Program-made: the position numbers and the translations under genes
The notes under the pieces: generated by a model
What the model was told of the DNA's origin: nothing
The model's input: only the letters and a program-made list of their open reading frames with translations
Database searches by the model: none
In this document: piece after piece, positions 16,786 through 22,460 of the stretch
How the letters are laid out: each line of letters starts with the position of its first letter
Position numbering within the stretch: the stretch's first letter is position 1
Assembly: GCF_003991155.1 (NCBI RefSeq)
Contig: NZ_CP031293.1
Origin: Escherichia coli
Lineage (GTDB): Bacteria; Pseudomonadota; Gammaproteobacteria; Enterobacterales; Enterobacteriaceae
Length of the DNA: 64,000 nt
Reading direction: 5' to 3' (one strand)

Positions 16786-17549
16786 GAGAATGCCTCCCGT
16801 TGCTCAAATACGCGGCTTAAAACATATTCGCGCATGGCGATGAATTGTGGATCGGACTTGATGCTGCGGCTCGGTTCCCCGGCAACAAAGCGGCGAGCAA
16901 AGTTGAGCGGCAGCCGCTCCAGCACGCGGCCAGGGCCGGATGAAAGCAGAACCAGTTCAGTCGCCATAAACACCGCTTCTTCTATATCGTGGGTAATCAA
17001 CAGCACCTGCTTGCCCGTCTCCTGCCAGAGTTTCAGCAGCAGGGTTTGCATCTGATCGCGGGTGAAGGCGTCCAGCGCGCCAAACGGTTCGTCGAGTAAT
17101 AACAGCTGGGGATTCGCCGCCAGCGCGCGGGCAATCCCTACCCGCTGACGTTGACCGCCGGAAAGCTGCCAGATATAGCGTTTTTCTGCGCCTTCCAGCC
17201 CCACTTTTTTCAGCATCTGGTGCGCGATTTCCAGTCGCTGTACTTTCTCTACACCTGCCAGTTGCAGGCCGAATGCCACGTTGTCCTGTACATTGCGCCA
17301 CGGTAGTAGCCCTTCATTCTGAAAAACTACGCCACGCTCTGCTCCCGGTCCCTCAATACGCTTACCCGCCAGTTGAATGCTGCCATGCTGATAAGGCACA
17401 AAACCGGCAATCAGATTCAGCAAGGTGGTTTTGCCGCAGCCAGACGGCCCCAGCACCACCAGTAGCTCGCCGCTTTCCAGCGTCAGGTTGATATCTTCCA
17501 GTGCCGGTTTGCCGCCATAATCGGCGTAAAGATGAGAGATTTGCAGCAT
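16782..17549 (-). CDS. tauB: Taurine ABC transporter ATP-binding protein
   Basis: 255 aa; Walker [10 protein letters not shown], signature LSGGQRQRV. Confidence 0.93.
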
Positions 17550-17561
17550 CTGCGCCTCCTT

Positions 17562-18524
17562 TTATTGCACGAAGCGCGAGGTCACGTACTGGCTGTAATC
17601 ATTCGCCACGGCAGGGACTTTGCCCTGATCTTTCAAAAACTGCGCGGTGTCGATGATCGCTTTGTTCACCGATCCGGTCAGTTCTGCCGTTTGCTGCTGC
17701 GGCGTCAGATAGGTATTCCCCTTCACCAGCCCCGGAACGTCACCTTCAGGCACGCCGCTTAACCGCGCCAGTTTGCTGATGTTTTCCGGCTGTTTCAGCC
17801 ACGCGTCTGGGTTAGCAATGTACGGTTGCTGAGCATCGATGGCGCTTTTAGCGAACGCTTTCACGACCTCAGGATGTTTCTCGGCAAAATCTTTGCGCAC
17901 TACCCAGACATCCAGCGTCGGCGCACCCCACTGCCCGACCTGTTCAGAATCGGTCAGCACCTTGCCGTCTTTTTCCAGGGCGTTAACCGCCGGTGCCCAG
18001 ACATAAGCACCATCAATGTCTCCCCGCTGCCATGCAGCGATAATCGCGGGCGGCTGCAGGTTCACAATCTCCACTTGCCCGGGTTTAATACCCCAGTGTT
18101 TCAGCGCCGCCAGCAGGCTGTAGTGGGTGGTGGAGATAAACGGTACGGCGATGCGCTTGCCAATCAGATCTTCCGGTTTGCTGATAGTTTTCTTCACCAC
18201 CAGCGCTTCGGAGTTACCCAGTTTTGACGCCAGCAAGAAGACTTCAATCGGCACCTGTTGGCTGGCTGCAACCGCTAACGGGCTGGAACCGAGGTTACCG
18301 ATTTGGACATCGCCTGAAGCCAGCGCCCGCACGATGCTGGCTCCGCTGTCAAACTTACGCCAGTCCACGGTTGCTCCGCTTTCTTTAGCAAAGGTGTTGT
18401 CGGCCTGAGCCACTTTCGCCGGTTCGGCTGAGGTTTGATAGGCCACGGTGACGTTCACCGCCTGTGCCTGAAAAGCGATGAATGCCAGTGCGGCAAGAAG
18501 TGTGTTACGCGATGAAATTGCCAT
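17562..18524 (-). CDS. tauA: Taurine ABC transporter periplasmic binding protein
   Basis: ORF-track frame to 18581; ATG at 18524 gives 320 aa with signal peptide MAISSRNTLLAALAFIAFQAQA. Confidence 0.9.
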   Translation of the reverse strand: MAISSRNTLLAALAFIAFQAQAVNVTVAYQTSAEPAKVAQADNTFAKESGATVDWRKFDSGASIVRALASGDVQIGNLGSSPLAVAASQQVPIEVFLLASKLGNSEALVVKKTISKPEDLIGKRIAVPFISTTHYSLLAALKHWGIKPGQVEIVNLQPPAIIAAWQRGDIDGAYVWAPAVNALEKDGKVLTDSEQVGQWGAPTLDVWVVRKDFAEKHPEVVKAFAKSAIDAQQPYIANPDAWLKQPENISKLARLSGVPEGDVPGLVKGNTYLTPQQQTAELTGSVNKAIIDTAQFLKDQGKVPAVANDYSQYVTSRFVQ

Positions 18525-18890
18525 GATTGTCTGCTCCCCTGTCTTGTTATGGGAGCAGTATTCAGGAATAAAAACATTCATTAAAAGAATTAGTCGTTAT
18601 CGCACAGATGATTTTATTCTTAGCAAAAAAACGGCAAAGGAAAGATTAAATATGCAATGACTCCGTTCTAACAATTGGGAAAATTACTACACTTCATTTT
18701 AGTGATGCATAAACAACCACATTACGAGATTTATTACTTCATTATTTCTATCAATATCAATACATATAATAAAACTATTATATTCGCATTATATATATCA
18801 CTGTATCATTCTCAATCACTCGCATATTACATTCACATAATGTATATAAACAATACTTGTTCACAGAACATATTTTTTAAATGCAATTAA

Positions 18891-18920
18891 TTGACAAACT
18901 AAATCACATCTAAATACAAT
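18891..18920 (+). promoter_or_regulatory. Candidate sigma70 promoter (TTGACA-N18-TACAAT) in the AT-rich tauA/yaiS intergenic region
   Basis: ttgaca 18891-18896, 18-bp spacer, tacaat 18915-18920; about 210 bp upstream of the yaiS start; sequence-only prediction. Confidence 0.3.
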
Positions 18921-19139
18921 GTATAAAACAAAATAACTATACATACCAAACACACAAACACTTAACATATGAATTGCATAAAAACATTAACCAGTCGCCC
19001 CCCCGGATCTGAAAGCCCTGGCTTTTCAATTATTAGCAACATTTAACACTTATAAATTAGCATCTGGCTGCGCCAGAGATTACGTCTCTGAGTGCATCGT
19101 TGTGCTTGTAGTATAATAAATAAAATGGAGTGTCATTAA

Positions 19140-19811
19140 GTGGATAAGGTTTTAGATTCAGCCCTCCTTTCTTCGGCAAATAAAAGAAAGGGTATCCTTG
19201 CTATTGGCGCACATCCTGACGATATAGAATTAGGCTGTGGCGCATCGCTTGCTCGTCTTGCGCAAAAAGGAATTTATATCGCAGCCGTGGTGATGACTAC
19301 CGGCAACTCTGGCACAGATGGAATAATCGATCGCCATGAAGAATCGCGCAACGCCCTAAAGATATTAGGGTGCCACCAAACTATTCATCTTAATTTTGCT
19401 GACACCCGCGCTCATTTACAGCTCAATGATATGATTTCCGCCCTGGAAGACATCATTAAAAATCAAATTCCGTCTGATGTAGAAATCATTCGTGTATACA
19501 CCATGCATGATGCTGACCGCCATCAGGATCATCTTGCAGTCTATCAAGCCTCAATGGTTGCCTGCCGAACTATTCCACAAATTCTCGGCTACGAAACCCC
19601 AAGTACCTGGCTTTCATTTATGCCTCAGGTTTTTGAATCCGTTAAAGAAGAATATTTCACAGTCAAACTTGCTGCATTAAAAAAACATAAAAGCCAGGAA
19701 CGACGCGATTATATGCGTCATGATCGCCTGCGTGCAGTTGCACAATTTCGCGGGCAACAGGTCAATAGCGATCTGGGTGAAGGCTTTGTAATTCATAAAA
19801 TGATTCTTTGA
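19140..19811 (+). CDS. yaiS: PIG-L/LmbE-family N-acetylglucosaminyl deacetylase-like protein
   Basis: 223 aa from GTG 19140; N-terminal ILAIGAHPDDIELGCG (PIG-L signature region); TATAAT at 19112-19117 and GGAG at 19127-19130 upstream; no signal peptide. Confidence 0.8.
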   Translation: MDKVLDSALLSSANKRKGILAIGAHPDDIELGCGASLARLAQKGIYIAAVVMTTGNSGTDGIIDRHEESRNALKILGCHQTIHLNFADTRAHLQLNDMISALEDIIKNQIPSDVEIIRVYTMHDADRHQDHLAVYQASMVACRTIPQILGYETPSTWLSFMPQVFESVKEEYFTVKLAALKKHKSQERRDYMRHDRLRAVAQFRGQQVNSDLGEGFVIHKMIL

Positions 19812-19820
19812 GCAAATTGC

Positions 19821-21017
19821 ATGAAAACCTGGATATTTATCTGTATGGCCGTAGCAATATTGCTATGGTTCCTGAGTACGTTAAGGCGTAAGCCCAGCCA
19901 AAAAAAAGGCTGTATTGACGCCATTATACCTGCGTATAACGAAGGCCCGTGTCTGGCGCAGTCACTGGATAATCTGCTGCGTAACCCTTATTTTTGCCGG
20001 GTAATTTGCGTTAACGACGGCTCCACGGACAATACCGAAGCGGTCATGGCGGAAGTCAAACGCAAATGGGGCGACCGCTTTATTGCCGTCACGCAAAAAA
20101 ATACCGGTAAAGGTGGTGCGCTGATGAATGGCCTCAATTACGCCACCTGCGACCAGGTTTTTTTAAGTGATGCCGACACCTATGTTCCGCCCGATCAAGA
20201 CGGAATGGGCTATATGCTGGCAGAAATAGAGCGCGGTGCTGATGCCGTAGGCGGCATTCCCTCTACTGCGTTGAAAGGCGCGGGTCTGTTACCGCACATC
20301 CGCGCGACCGTAAAGTTGCCGATGATTGTTATGAAGCGCACGCTACAGCAGCTCCTGGGCGGCGCACCGTTTATTATCAGCGGTGCCTGCGGGATGTTCC
20401 GTACTGATGTATTGCGTAAGTTCGGTTTCTCTGATCGTACTAAAGTCGAAGACCTTGATCTCACCTGGACATTGGTGGCAAACGGCTATCGTATTCGGCA
20501 GGCGAATCGCTGCATCGTATACCCACAGGAATGCAACAGCCCGCGTGAGGAATGGCGTCGCTGGCGGCGTTGGATTGTGGGCTACGCGGTCTGTATGCGC
20601 CTGCATAAAAGACTTTTATTTAGCCGCTTCGGTATCTTCAGTATATTTCCTATGCTGTTGGTTGTGCTTTATGGCGTTGGGATTTATCTCACTACCTGGT
20701 TTAATGAATTCATCACCACCGGGCCGCATAGTGTGGTGTTGGCAATGTTTCCGCTTATCTGGGTCGGCGTAGTTTGTGTTATTGGTGCTTTTAGCGCCTG
20801 GTTTCATCGTTGCTGGTTGTTGGTGCCTTTAGCGCCGCTTTCCGTTGTGTATGTATTATTAGCTTATGCCATCTGGATTATTTATGGACTTATTGCCTTT
20901 TTTACTGGACGCGAACCTCAGCGCGACAAACCCACCCGCTATTCCGCACTGGTGGAAGCGTCAACCGCTTATTCCCAACCTTCTGTCACAGGAACTGAAA
21001 AACTTTCTGAAGCTTAA
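19821..21017 (+). CDS. yaiP: Family-2 glycosyltransferase with N-terminal TM helix and C-terminal multi-TM region (synthase-like)
   Basis: 398 aa; N-terminal TM WIFICMAVAILLWFL, GT-A core with SDAD, EEWRRWRRW (QxxRW-like), hydrophobic C-terminal helices. Confidence 0.85.
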   Translation: MKTWIFICMAVAILLWFLSTLRRKPSQKKGCIDAIIPAYNEGPCLAQSLDNLLRNPYFCRVICVNDGSTDNTEAVMAEVKRKWGDRFIAVTQKNTGKGGALMNGLNYATCDQVFLSDADTYVPPDQDGMGYMLAEIERGADAVGGIPSTALKGAGLLPHIRATVKLPMIVMKRTLQQLLGGAPFIISGACGMFRTDVLRKFGFSDRTKVEDLDLTWTLVANGYRIRQANRCIVYPQECNSPREEWRRWRRWIVGYAVCMRLHKRLLFSRFGIFSIFPMLLVVLYGVGIYLTTWFNEFITTGPHSVVLAMFPLIWVGVVCVIGAFSAWFHRCWLLVPLAPLSVVYVLLAYAIWIIYGLIAFFTGREPQRDKPTRYSALVEASTAYSQPSVTGTEKLSEA

Positions 21018-21576
21018 TGTTAAAGAGAAAAATATTCAGATTGCAGACCAGGTAATTATTGATGAAACTGCAGGTGAAGTTGTTATCGGCGCGAATACCC
21101 GTATTTGTCACGGTGCCGTTATTCAGGGTCCGGTAGTGATTGGCGCAAACTGCCTGATAGGTAATTATGCGTTTATTCGTCCTGGCACAATAATCAGCAA
21201 TGGCGTAAAAATTGGTTTCGCCACCGAAATTAAAAATGCGGTTATTGAAGCGGAAGCAACGATTGGTCCGCAATGTTTTATTGCCGACTCGGTAGTCGCA
21301 AACCAGGCATATTTGGGCGCACAAGTACGTACCAGTAATCATCGTCTGGATGAACAGCCCGTGTCTGTTCGAACTCCAGAGGGAATTATCGCTACCGGAT
21401 GCGATAAATTAGGTTGTTATATCGGACAGCGTTCACGCCTTGGCGTACAAGTTATTATTTTGCCTGGGCGAATTATTTCCCCGAACACGCAACTTGGCCC
21501 GCGCGTGATTGTAGAACGTAATTTACCTACCGGAACTTATTCACTCCGACAAGAACTTATCCGTACAGGAGATTAA
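20866..21576 (+). CDS. yaiX: Hexapeptide-repeat (left-handed beta-helix) acyltransferase; intact; true start uncertain
   Basis: Repeats VIGANTRICHGAVIQGPVVIGANCLIGNYAFIRPGTIISNGVKIG; ATG-defined frame overlaps yaiP 3' end by about 150 nt; split by IS2 in MG1655 (from memory). Confidence 0.7.
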   Translation: MPSGLFMDLLPFLLDANLSATNPPAIPHWWKRQPLIPNLLSQELKNFLKLNVKEKNIQIADQVIIDETAGEVVIGANTRICHGAVIQGPVVIGANCLIGNYAFIRPGTIISNGVKIGFATEIKNAVIEAEATIGPQCFIADSVVANQAYLGAQVRTSNHRLDEQPVSVRTPEGIIATGCDKLGCYIGQRSRLGVQVIILPGRIISPNTQLGPRVIVERNLPTGTYSLRQELIRTGD

Positions 21577-21577
21577 A

Positions 21578-22351
21578 ATGATAAAACGGACGTTATTAGC
21601 GGCGGCCATTTTTAGCACATTGCCCGCTTATGCCGGGTTAACTTCCATTACCGCGGGCTACGATTTTACCGATTATTCTGGCGATCATGGCAATCGTAAT
21701 TTAGCGTATGCTGAACTGGTGGCGAAAGTTGAAAACGCAACGCTGCTTTTTAATCTTTCCCAGGGGCGTCGTGATTATGAAACTGAACATTTCAATGCCA
21801 CTCGCGGTCAGGGTGCGGTCTGGTATAAATGGAATAACTGGCTGACAACCCGAACGGGTATTGCCTTTGCGGATAATACGCCGGTCTTTGCCCGCCAGGA
21901 TTTTCGTCAGGATATTAACCTGGCACTGTTGCCAAAAACGCTTTTCACGACCGGTTATCGCTACACTAAATATTACGATGATGTCGAAGTCGATGCCTGG
22001 CAAGGCGGCGTATCCCTCTATACTGGCCCGGTGATCTCCAGCTACCGCTATACCCATTATGACTCCAGCGATGCAGGTGGTAGTTACAGCAATATGATTT
22101 CCGTGCGTCTGAATGACCCGCGCGGCACTGGTTATACGCAACTATGGCTAAGCCGCGGAACAGGCGCTTACACCTATGACTGGACGCCAGAAACACGCTA
22201 CGGCAGCATGAAGAGCGTCAGTTTGCAACGTATTCAACCGCTGACTGAGCAACTTAATCTCGGGCTGACGGCAGGTAAAGTGTGGTACGACACCCCAACC
22301 GATGATTATAACGGTCTGCAACTTGCAGCCCATCTGACCTGGAAATTCTAA
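21578..22351 (+). CDS. yaiO: Outer-membrane beta-barrel protein YaiO
   Basis: 257 aa; signal peptide MIKRTLLAAAIFSTLPAYA; alternating aromatic/hydrophilic pattern; C-terminal ...AAHLTWKF; starts 1 bp after yaiX stop. Confidence 0.8.
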   Translation: MIKRTLLAAAIFSTLPAYAGLTSITAGYDFTDYSGDHGNRNLAYAELVAKVENATLLFNLSQGRRDYETEHFNATRGQGAVWYKWNNWLTTRTGIAFADNTPVFARQDFRQDINLALLPKTLFTTGYRYTKYYDDVEVDAWQGGVSLYTGPVISSYRYTHYDSSDAGGSYSNMISVRLNDPRGTGYTQLWLSRGTGAYTYDWTPETRYGSMKSVSLQRIQPLTEQLNLGLTAGKVWYDTPTDDYNGLQLAAHLTWKF

Positions 22352-22460
22352 TTCCTTCTGCCGCCCGCTATCCGGGGCGGCCTTCCCTGCCGATTAGCCC
22401 CCCCTTTCCTCTTTGTTTTCCGACCACATTCACCGGATAAATTTTATTCTCCAGTGTTAT

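Follow-up and report, generated by a model that had tools for sequence, protein, structure and literature searches.

The tauA–yaiS spacer of Escherichia coli is a known H-NS-silenced promoter island and holds a conserved promoter-like block

The spacer between tauA and yaiS is an H-NS-silenced promoter island that is already known; it represents neither a novel RNA gene nor a novel switch. In the 64-kb stretch of E. coli DNA analysed here (the window), it occupies positions 18525-19139 (615 bp), between the start codon of tauA, the end of which is at 18524 (minus strand), and the GTG of yaiS at 19140. Very probably, this spacer combines several parts into one divergent control region that borders a horizontally acquired cluster; the key properties of the region have been published before. 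As such, it represents textbook xenogeneic silencing at the junction of a core operon and an acquired cluster and no new kind of element, the strong conservation of one block inside the known island being the one mildly new item. The spacer is 100% identical to that of E. coli strain 2016C-3878. Its K-12 equivalent (384617-385231) is of equal length and differs at 14 of the 615 positions, nine of which fall into 18976-19052; the K-12 annotation contains no feature between yaiS and tauA. The GC content of the whole spacer amounts to 31%, that of 18681-18990 to 23%. Sequence anatomy and conservation pattern were observed directly, as were, in K-12, the transcription start site (TSS) of tauA, the binding of RNA polymerase (RNAP) to the spacer in vitro, the binding of H-NS and the H-NS-dependent repression of yaiS and yaiP. 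All experimental data cited for the spacer come from K-12, not from this strain; coordinates were converted between U00096.2 and U00096.3 with an offset of 776 bp. The features named in an original prediction for this region were all found where it had placed them when read from the sequence (Table 1). The "CA-repeat" among them is present as a CA-rich tract and not as a microsatellite, since no tandem repeat was found.

Table 1. Features of the tauA–yaiS spacer and its borders (window positions)
Feature	Position	Strand	Description
tauA regulatory region	18525..18662	-	26-nt 5' UTR; TSS 18550; -10 AATACT 18562..18557; weak -35 TTTAAT 18585..18580; upstream activator-site region
24-bp motif TTCTTAGCAAAAAAACGGCAAAGG	18617..18640 (-67 to -90 of tauA)		probable core of a Cbl (LysR-type activator) site
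Published promoter island (U00096.2 383994, 309 bp)	18678..18986		H-NS-bound AT-rich core, about 23% GC
TTGAGA-N16-TATAAT, 11/12 sigma-70-like, facing tauA	18815..18788	-	promoter scan
Hydrophobic 35-codon ORF (30 codons in the other haplogroup), MLSVCVFGMYSYFVLYIVFRCDLVCQLIAFKKYVL	18861..18968	-	coincides with the conserved block
Conserved block	18883..18975 (93 bp)	+	UP-like A/T tract, TTGACA, N18, TACAAT, predicted +1 at ~18927, first ~49 nt of CA-rich transcript
TTGACA-N18-TACAAT, 11/12	TTGACA 18891-18896, TACAAT 18915-18920	+	sequence read and promoter scan
CA-rich tract ccaaacacacaaacac	18946..18961	+	inside the most C-rich, G-poor 78 nt of the window (18927-19004: C 23, G 4)
Hypervariable GC-richer patch, mosaic junction	18976..19052		K-12-like to its left, CE10-like to its right
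C7 run	18998..19004		lineage-specific substitution allele
Local hairpin UGCGCCAGAGAU-UAC-GUCUCUGAGUGCA	19069..19096	+	on an AGAGA/TCTCT inverted repeat; z = -2.1 for 19050-19145
Perfect TATAAT, candidate yaiS-proximal -10	19112..19117	+	22 nt before the yaiS GTG; invariant in 9 strains
Mini-uORF ATG GAG TGT CAT TAA	19125..19139	+	abuts the yaiS GTG; contains the GGAG Shine-Dalgarno sequence 19127-19130
yaiS	19140..19811	+	PIG-L family deacetylase, first gene of yaiS-yaiP-yaiX-yaiO; PF02585, E = 4e-25

The central part of the spacer is listed as entry 383994_309, yaiS(-)/tauA(+), among the 78 promoter islands of K-12 MG1655, and is associated there with predicted foreign genes (Panyukov & Ozoline 2013, PMC3661553, Table 1). 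TANNNT hexamers occur 7-9 times per 100 bp in 18700-18999, compared to a window mean of 1.85 (SD 1.9). Loosely defined promoters are not enriched in the spacer (3 found, 3.5 expected). Sites matching the consensus at 11 or more of 12 positions were found twice, compared to 0.08 expected from 2000 dinucleotide shuffles (P ~0.08 for one or more such sites, 0.004 for two or more). The second of these, on the minus strand, was absent from the original prediction. Both are reported for K-12 as TTGACA-18-TACAAT for yaiS and TTGAGA-16-TACAAT for tauABCD (Shimada 2014, PMC3946193), and both the RpoD and the RpoS holoenzyme bind the spacer in vitro according to SELEX peaks (Shimada 2014, PMC3946193; Shimada 2017). 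The minus-strand site is apparently inactive: no TSS in tauA direction was found for K-12 384600-385199 in either wild type or Δhns (Forrest 2022) and none for U00096.2 383800-384399 in the data of Ettwiller 2016. The listed interval thus combines an extreme promoter-site density with RNAP binding and, in the K-12 literature, the absence of a wild-type TSS from either near-consensus site. The segment from about 18663 to 18990 is best seen as an AT-rich promoter island, full of -10-like hexamers, carrying two near-consensus sigma-70 sites and bound by RNAP in vitro. It resembles the 78 E. coli promoter islands (Shavkunov/Panyukov/Ozoline) in promoter-site density, RNAP binding, scant or absent productive transcription, H-NS occupancy and the neighbourhood of foreign genes. 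Nothing essential is different here; what is added is the conserved promoter-like block inside the island, and the private allele of this strain, including the C7 run, lies just outside.

The suggestion that the spacer is a site of H-NS action is borne out and was already in print. The spacer carries an H-NS mark from genomic SELEX (Shimada 2014, PMC3946193), and the island is scored as H-NS-bound "according to all studies" in a compilation of ChIP data (Panyukov & Ozoline 2013, PMC3661553). For the H-NS intervals at 383841-384686 (Forrest 2022, PMC8894471, Supplementary Data 3), the version of the coordinates is ambiguous: read as U00096.2 they correspond to window positions 18294-19139, read as U00096.3 only to 19070-19915. 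Both readings give an overlap with the spacer. In Δhns compared to wild type, yaiS is approximately 14-fold (log2FC 3.85, P = 6e-20) and yaiP 7-fold (log2FC 2.84, P = 9e-15) more abundant, with lower values for tauA (log2FC 1.46) and yaiO (1.06) (Forrest 2022, PMC8894471). The Lang-type high-affinity H-NS motif is not enriched in the spacer, with one match with two mismatches at 18894. Occupancy in the literature and derepression in Δhns are thus joined by the lower GC content of acquired DNA (41-50% in the yaiS-yaiO cluster, 55-60% in tauABCD). H-NS coats the island in vivo and thereby keeps yaiSPXO off, and its loss releases yaiS to the approximately 14-fold higher level. As in other cases of xenogeneic silencing, the region upstream is AT-rich, is bound by H-NS and has received IS insertions, and derepression in Δhns is strong. 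Unlike usual H-NS targets, however, the silenced region also contains a promoter of the core genome, that of tauA, which is detectably active; furthermore, neither a counter-silencer nor a condition that induces yaiSPXO is known, in contrast to other H-NS-silenced operons.

The tauA-proximal 138 bp belong to the core operon. The K-12 start site TSS_385206_+, which corresponds to window position 18550, is present in the wild-type, Δhns and Δhns pRok Cappable-seq lists (Forrest 2022, PMC8894471), and the -10 and -35 hexamers were identified by inspection of the sequence itself. Among yaiS-carrying lineages this region diverges by only 1.4-5%. In the O157-type haplotype, which lacks yaiSPXO, the sole stretch upstream of 18562 in common with the present sequence is the 24-bp motif, matching at 20 of 24 positions at an identical offset (local score 28; shuffles: mean 19.1, SD 2.2, maximum 26). 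The footprint of Cbl on tauA, as mapped by van der Ploeg and co-workers in 1997, reportedly extends from -112 to -68. The motif is probably the core of this Cbl site, judged from its position and conservation. The TSS 26 nt before the ATG, the weak -35 and an upstream motif retained between otherwise unrelated haplotypes, at the position expected for a LysR-type activator, are as in the Cbl/CysB-controlled tauABCD promoter, with the Cbl site putative. This part of the spacer would then be a promoter activated by Cbl under sulfate starvation, which covers only the first ~22% of the interval. It offers a worked example of a core promoter usable less than ~130 bp from an H-NS-coated island. The junction of the two alternative accessory islands coincides exactly with the tauA -10 element, upstream of which the activator site alone is kept.

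The 93-bp block around the yaiS-facing near-consensus site shows 5.4% divergence between the deep haplogroups, compared to 20-24% in its flanks (Fisher P = 2e-4). It is found in 4267 genomes, in 96% of these at 95% identity or more; a control segment of the same length could be detected in no more than 3354. Neither hexamer varies among nine diverse strains. The consensus-like promoter of the original prediction is therefore real as a sequence, is invariant in these strains and lies in a spacer bound by RNAP in vitro, but the wild-type K-12 list of Kim 2012 contains no TSS at 18927, only one supported by two reads at 18506. As the block is far better conserved than its flanks, this suggests a functional, H-NS-silenced distal promoter of yaiS, or else a site at which RNAP is trapped. 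The predicted 213-nt leader is C-rich, G-poor and untranslated, which would favour Rho termination over a role as structured riboregulator. The plus-strand C/G ratio of 18891-18968 is 6.0, the highest in the window (99th percentile 2.3), and the region of the CA-rich tract is, by composition, a possible Rho-loading region. A further step, that the block is under purifying selection throughout E. coli as a dedicated silencing module, in which a strong promoter trapped by H-NS and a Rho-loading leader would gate the acquired yaiSPXO genes for glycan modification, inside an island of a kind usually considered unproductive, appears rather doubtful to us; a pair of antisense RNA and small ORF would be a less likely basis of such selection. 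Should the block turn out to be functional, this would point to selected promoters, and not only compositional noise, in at least some promoter islands.

A few observations on the block and its surroundings may be added. Its lower divergence could stem from a recombinational sweep, not from selection. A 21-nt imperfect inverted repeat flanking the block (18871-18891 and 18969-18989) might have been a MITE or have formed a long-range stem. Both ideas were rejected: at the composition of the spacer, we estimate that chance alone would produce approximately 11 perfect inverted repeats of 8 bp, and the minimum-energy folds omit the repeat; one co-change from C-G to T-A occurs in some strains and is not significant. 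Targeting of the CA tract by GcvB was likewise dropped, the 8-nt match being broken in K-12 (CACA to CATA).

The original prediction had also proposed that the near-consensus site produces a functional RNA, either a structured 5' leader of yaiS or a stand-alone sRNA starting at ~18927. The 11/12 match with its A/T-rich UP-like tract, the species-wide retention of -44 to +49 and the presence of a local hairpin (z = -2.1) in the 213-nt leader are in favour of such an RNA. The leader as a whole, however, folds with a z of only -0.5, and in the consensus fold of eight haplotypes 0 of 46 pairs are compensatory (covariation term -0.48); within the hairpin, too, only one-sided wobble changes and one disruptive change were found, with no compensatory pair. 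No intrinsic terminator is present on either strand of 18300-19400. At E <= 10, the only Rfam matches in 17500-20500 were two sub-threshold chance ones, both outside the spacer. Moreover, variation within the spacer is highest in the middle of the putative leader (18976-19052), conservation of the upstream region does not extend to Citrobacter, and neither the K-12 annotation nor the wild-type TSS list has an entry for such a transcript. The proposal did not hold up, and we consider a functional RNA very unlikely. A type I toxin-antitoxin-like pair, in which the minus strand of the conserved block codes for a small hydrophobic protein and the plus-strand promoter gives an antisense RNA to the 5' end of its ORF, is even less probable. 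The ORF is open in 10 of 10 sequences examined (30 or 35 aa), its limits approximate those of the block and the peptide has an 18-residue hydrophobic stretch; the near-consensus promoter opposes it, so that the transcripts would overlap at codons 1-14, and an upstream minus-strand TSS (19103) was recorded in one condition. Against this stand an ATG without an upstream Shine-Dalgarno sequence, a near neutral ratio of differences (2 synonymous, 7 non-synonymous), a premature stop in one haplogroup and the lack of Pfam or NCBIfam matches, paralogues or named relatives, with only sporadic "hypothetical protein" entries in the databases. Minus-strand RNA folding is not in excess (z = -0.02 and -1.06), no terminator was found, and apart from the tauA TSS no start in tauA direction was recorded in the spacer in wild type or Δhns. 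As open frames of this length are, by our estimate, not rare at the spacer composition, the ORF is probably spurious. Neither a constrained toxin ORF with a ribosome-binding site nor a structured, terminated antisense sRNA, as in type I systems, was found.

Two further alternatives concern the expression of yaiS. A sigma-54 promoter in the spacer is suggested by the inclusion of yaiS in a sigma-54 promoter set derived from RegulonDB (PMC3118216). Yet no GG-N10-GC site matching TGGCAC-N5-TTGCA was found on the yaiS strand of 18451-19250, here or in K-12, and the best relaxed match (18963, 8/11) is devoid of the -24 GG, which makes this explanation scarcely credible. Similarly close to negligible is the chance that the C7 run serves as a contingency tract, prone to slippage, by which yaiS expression varies in phase. 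The homopolymer does lie between the distal promoter and yaiS, and C6 was found in one genome. Seven bases are short for slippage, however, the run is outside any coding frame or promoter spacer, and the single C6 could be an assembly error. The length comparison across isolates called for in the original prediction speaks against a variable tract: the C7 allele is present in 135 of 5426 genomes, 131 of the 135 carriers are identical over 76 bp and the C6 is the one checked variant, which argues against slippage. All other lineages carry non-homopolymeric sequences of the same length (GAACCCACGGG, GAACCTCCGGG, GTATCCCCATA), so C7 arose by substitutions. The surrounding patch diverges by 11.7% from K-12 and by 23.7% from CE10, compared to 0-1% in the neighbouring segments. 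It would be an unconstrained, recombination-scarred part of the H-NS-silenced spacer, with C7 as the allele of one lineage.

The yaiS-proximal segment (19053-19139) appears as a conserved unit with a perfect TATAAT, a Shine-Dalgarno sequence and the GTG start, from which yaiS could be expressed. The yaiS mRNA derepressed in Δhns may start at 18927 or at about 19124. A SELEX peak of the RpoS holoenzyme at U00096.2 383868 corresponds to window position 19112 (Shimada 2017). The minus-strand TSS at 19103 (TSS_384653_+), 7 nt from a TATACT on the opposite strand, was found in the Δhns pRok list only (Forrest 2022, PMC8894471). The TATAAT is probably bidirectional, reading TATACT on the other strand with a divergent TSS recorded. 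Bidirectional promoters are said, in work that Warman and co-workers reportedly presented in 2021, to arise from such -10 symmetry; the present case differs in that its divergent TSS is recorded in that single list. In Citrobacter, a TAAAAT at similar distance is almost the sole similarity upstream, the region being unalignable except for ~40 nt beside the start codon, and the proximal TATAAT may represent the ancestral yaiS promoter. In strains A3bat and O25:H1, a change of the mini-uORF stop from TAA to AAA puts its ATG in frame, and PGAP places the gene start there.

Approximately 22% of the E. coli genomes are without the yaiS-yaiO cluster and carry a different island in its place. Among GTDB species representatives, a close homologue of yaiS (81%) was found only in Citrobacter sp. 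FP75, in another genomic context; the next match is at 48%. In the present strain yaiS is intact (223 aa), in K-12 it has a stop at codon 186. The products of yaiSPXO are a deacetylase, a GT2 glycosyltransferase, an acetyltransferase and an outer-membrane barrel.

The 901 bp around the spacer separating the divergent genes tauA (minus strand) and yaiS (plus strand) show 100% identity to E. coli strain 2016C-3878 and 98.2% to K-12, in which the orientation is reversed, and the sequence was assigned to E. coli. Since the tauA start codon ends at 18524 and the yaiS GTG lies at 19140 (the start of K-12 b0364, 384616), the spacer comprises 615 bp (18525-19139), as originally predicted; its length is the same in K-12, where no feature is annotated within it. 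K-12 coordinates (U00096.3) were converted as window = 403756 − K-12 coordinate; at this locus U00096.2 equals U00096.3 minus 776.

The sequence features described in the original prediction are accurate. The promoter-like site consists of TTGACA (18891-96), N18 and TACAAT (18915-20), a CA-rich tract is located at 18946-61 and a C7 run at 18998-19004, and the GC content is low (31% overall, 23% in 18681-18990). No tandem repeat was found in a search for such elements. A further 11/12 site, TTGAGA-N16-TATAAT, is present on the minus strand (18815..18788). Loosely defined promoters are no more frequent than expected by chance (3 versus 3.5), while matches of at least 11/12 are enriched (two seen versus 0.08 expected; P = 0.004 for at least two), and -10-like hexamers exceed the mean density of the window by 3-4 SD.

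An alignment of nine E. coli strains from two deep haplogroups divided the spacer into segments of different divergence between the window and CE10, a strain of the other haplogroup (see table). Divergence in the conserved block, which harbors the distal promoter-like site, is significantly lower than in the flanks (Fisher P = 2e-4), and neither hexamer varies among the nine strains. The block was detected in 4267 genomes, with at least 95% identity in 96% of these, compared to 3354 genomes for a control of equal length (18690-18782) and 3227 for 18970-19045.

Segments of the tauA-yaiS spacer and the haplotype boundary, with divergence between the window and CE10
Feature	Coordinates	Divergence
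tauA promoter	18525-18662	5.1%
AT island	18663-18882	20%, plus a 9-bp indel
Conserved block	18883-18975	5.4%
Hypervariable patch	18976-19052	24%
yaiS-proximal segment	19053-19139	0%
Boundary between yaiSPXO haplotype and alternative island	18562/18563; L002 6126-6427	

The spacer is among the RpoD-holoenzyme SELEX sites of Shimada et al. 2014 (PMC3946193), with exactly TTGACA-18-TACAAT listed for yaiS, TTGAGA-16-TACAAT for tauABCD, and an HNS mark. For the RpoS holoenzyme, a peak at 383868 (Shimada et al. 2017, PMC5493296) corresponds to window position 19112. Panyukov & Ozoline 2013 (PMC3661553) include 383994_309 yaiS/tauA (window 18678-18986) in their list of 78 "promoter islands", which bind RNA polymerase, yield hardly any long RNA and are covered by H-NS; this island is H-NS-bound "according to all studies" and linked with predicted foreign genes. 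In Δhns compared to wild type, log2 fold changes were 3.85 for yaiS (P = 6e-20), 2.84 for yaiP, 1.06 for yaiO and 1.46 for tauA (Forrest et al. 2022, PMC8894471). Whichever coordinate version applies, the H-NS intervals in the same study (383841-384686) overlap with the spacer; they would span it entirely if given in U00096.2, the version used for the source ChIP data. The proposed H-NS site is correct and already published (PMC3946193, PMC3661553, PMC8894471); the only mildly new point is that, within the island, the block with the distal promoter is selectively conserved.

For tauA, TSS_385206_+ (window 18550) was found in wild type, Δhns and Δhns pRok (Forrest et al. 2022, PMC8894471). It lies 26 nt upstream of the tauA ATG and is compatible with a -10 element AATACT at 18562..18557. 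No other start in the tauA direction is contained in the wild-type or Δhns lists between K-12 384600 and 385199 (same study), and none was found in U00096.2 383800-384399 (Ettwiller 2016), so that the minus-strand 11/12 site was not seen to fire. Only the Δhns pRok list (Forrest et al. 2022, PMC8894471) contains a minus-strand start at 19103, located 7 nt from TATACT, which is the yaiS-proximal TATAAT (19112-17) read on the opposite strand. Towards yaiS, Kim 2012 lists a single wild-type start, at 18506 (plus strand, 2 reads). This weak start is antisense to the first tauA codons and was assigned by Kim 2012 to yaiS with a 634-nt leader; it may represent pervasive transcription entering the island.

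The proposal that the region encodes a long structured leader or a small RNA was not supported. The 234-nt putative leader starting at about 18927 folds no better than shuffled sequences (z = -0.5), a local hairpin at 19069-96 being the sole modest signal (z = -2.1). Compensatory changes were found in none of 46 pairs of the consensus fold (8 haplotypes), and searches of the spacer yielded no terminator and no Rfam match. The first 78 nt of the leader contain 23 C and 4 G, the most extreme C/G ratio of the window. From this and the absence of translation across 213 nt, we infer a resemblance to a Rho-loading region. As an unlikely rival reading, a hydrophobic minus-strand ORF of 35 codons (18968..18861) coincides with the conserved block and is open in all strains. 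This ORF has no Shine-Dalgarno sequence, belongs to no family, is shorter in one haplogroup and has an unstructured mRNA, and its changes are 2 synonymous versus 7 non-synonymous. A sigma-54 promoter for yaiS, under which a database listing places the gene, is contradicted by the site search, in which no such site exists.

The conserved block is flanked by a 21-nt imperfect inverted repeat (18871-18891 / 18969-18989; perfect core ATGCAATT / AATTGCAT), whose arms show paired C->T and G->A substitutions in some strains. The repeat is expected by chance at the local composition and is unused in predicted folds.

The window is a mosaic that resembles K-12 up to about 18975 (about 1% divergence) and CE10 from 19053 across yaiS and yaiP (0.1%), with the intervening patch private to its lineage. 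The window strain is a recombinant, in which about 8 private substitutions cluster at the junction (18990-19029). At the C7 position, GAACCCACGGG is found in K-12, GAACCTCCGGG in O104:H4 and GTATCCCCATA or similar in the other haplogroup, all of equal length. The C7 allele was found in 135 of 5426 genomes; over 76 bp, 131 of these do not differ from one another, while four deviate at one position (C6 in the single one checked). The proposal on the C tract is not supported, and C7 is a substitution allele rather than a slippage tract.

The cluster yaiS-yaiP-yaiX-yaiO (19140-22400) encodes a PIG-L deacetylase, a GT2 glycosyltransferase, a hexapeptide acyltransferase (these three confirmed by Pfam) and an outer-membrane beta-barrel protein, and looks like a small module for surface-glycan synthesis and export. 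It is absent from about 22% of E. coli genomes. In O157:H7 its place is taken by genes for a response regulator, a MASE1 kinase, a UhpC-like protein and an ABC transporter, an alternative island also found in other strains. Identity with this haplotype does not extend beyond 18562, the upstream limit of the tauA -10; further out, the only shared stretch is a 24-bp motif (18617-18640, 20/24, same offset) at -67 to -90 of tauA, a position that we take to be that of the Cbl footprint. Among GTDB species representatives, a close yaiS (81%) was found only in Citrobacter sp. FP75, the next match being 48% (Stenotrophomonas), so that the distribution is narrow, covering E. coli and one Citrobacter species. 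Citrobacter sp. FP75 carries the same four genes in a different context. Since similarity of its AT-rich, otherwise unrelated upstream region to E. coli is confined to the last ~40 nt, with TAAAAT at the place of TATAAT, the comparison favours an ancestral proximal -10 and a distal promoter specific to E. coli.

In many lineages, the cluster is undergoing decay. In K-12, yaiS is truncated to 185 aa (codon 186, window 19695, CAA->TAA) and IS2 is inserted within yaiX. IS1 is found at the identical point (18748, between TTACTTCATTATTTC and GGTGATGCTGCC) in two unrelated-looking strains, as a simple insertion in 167 and accompanied in PEC389 by a deletion that extends across yaiS and yaiP into yaiX; strain 1506 shows an IS1-mediated loss from within tauA into yaiS. 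In the window, yaiS is intact with 223 aa, the length of the Citrobacter homologue, despite being called a pseudogene ("missing C-terminus") by PGAP in this and many other strains. A mini-uORF (ATG GAG TGT CAT TAA) ends immediately before the yaiS GTG (19125-19142). In strains A3 and O25:H1, T->A at 19137 removes its stop and turns the ATG into an in-frame start, annotated as such by PGAP; Citrobacter has a different 8-codon uORF overlapping a TTG start. The small-protein gene ykiC (39 aa, 19677-19796, minus strand), validated in K-12 by VanOrsdel 2018 (PMC6001520), is antisense to the yaiS 3' end and differs in the window by one amino acid (S15P).
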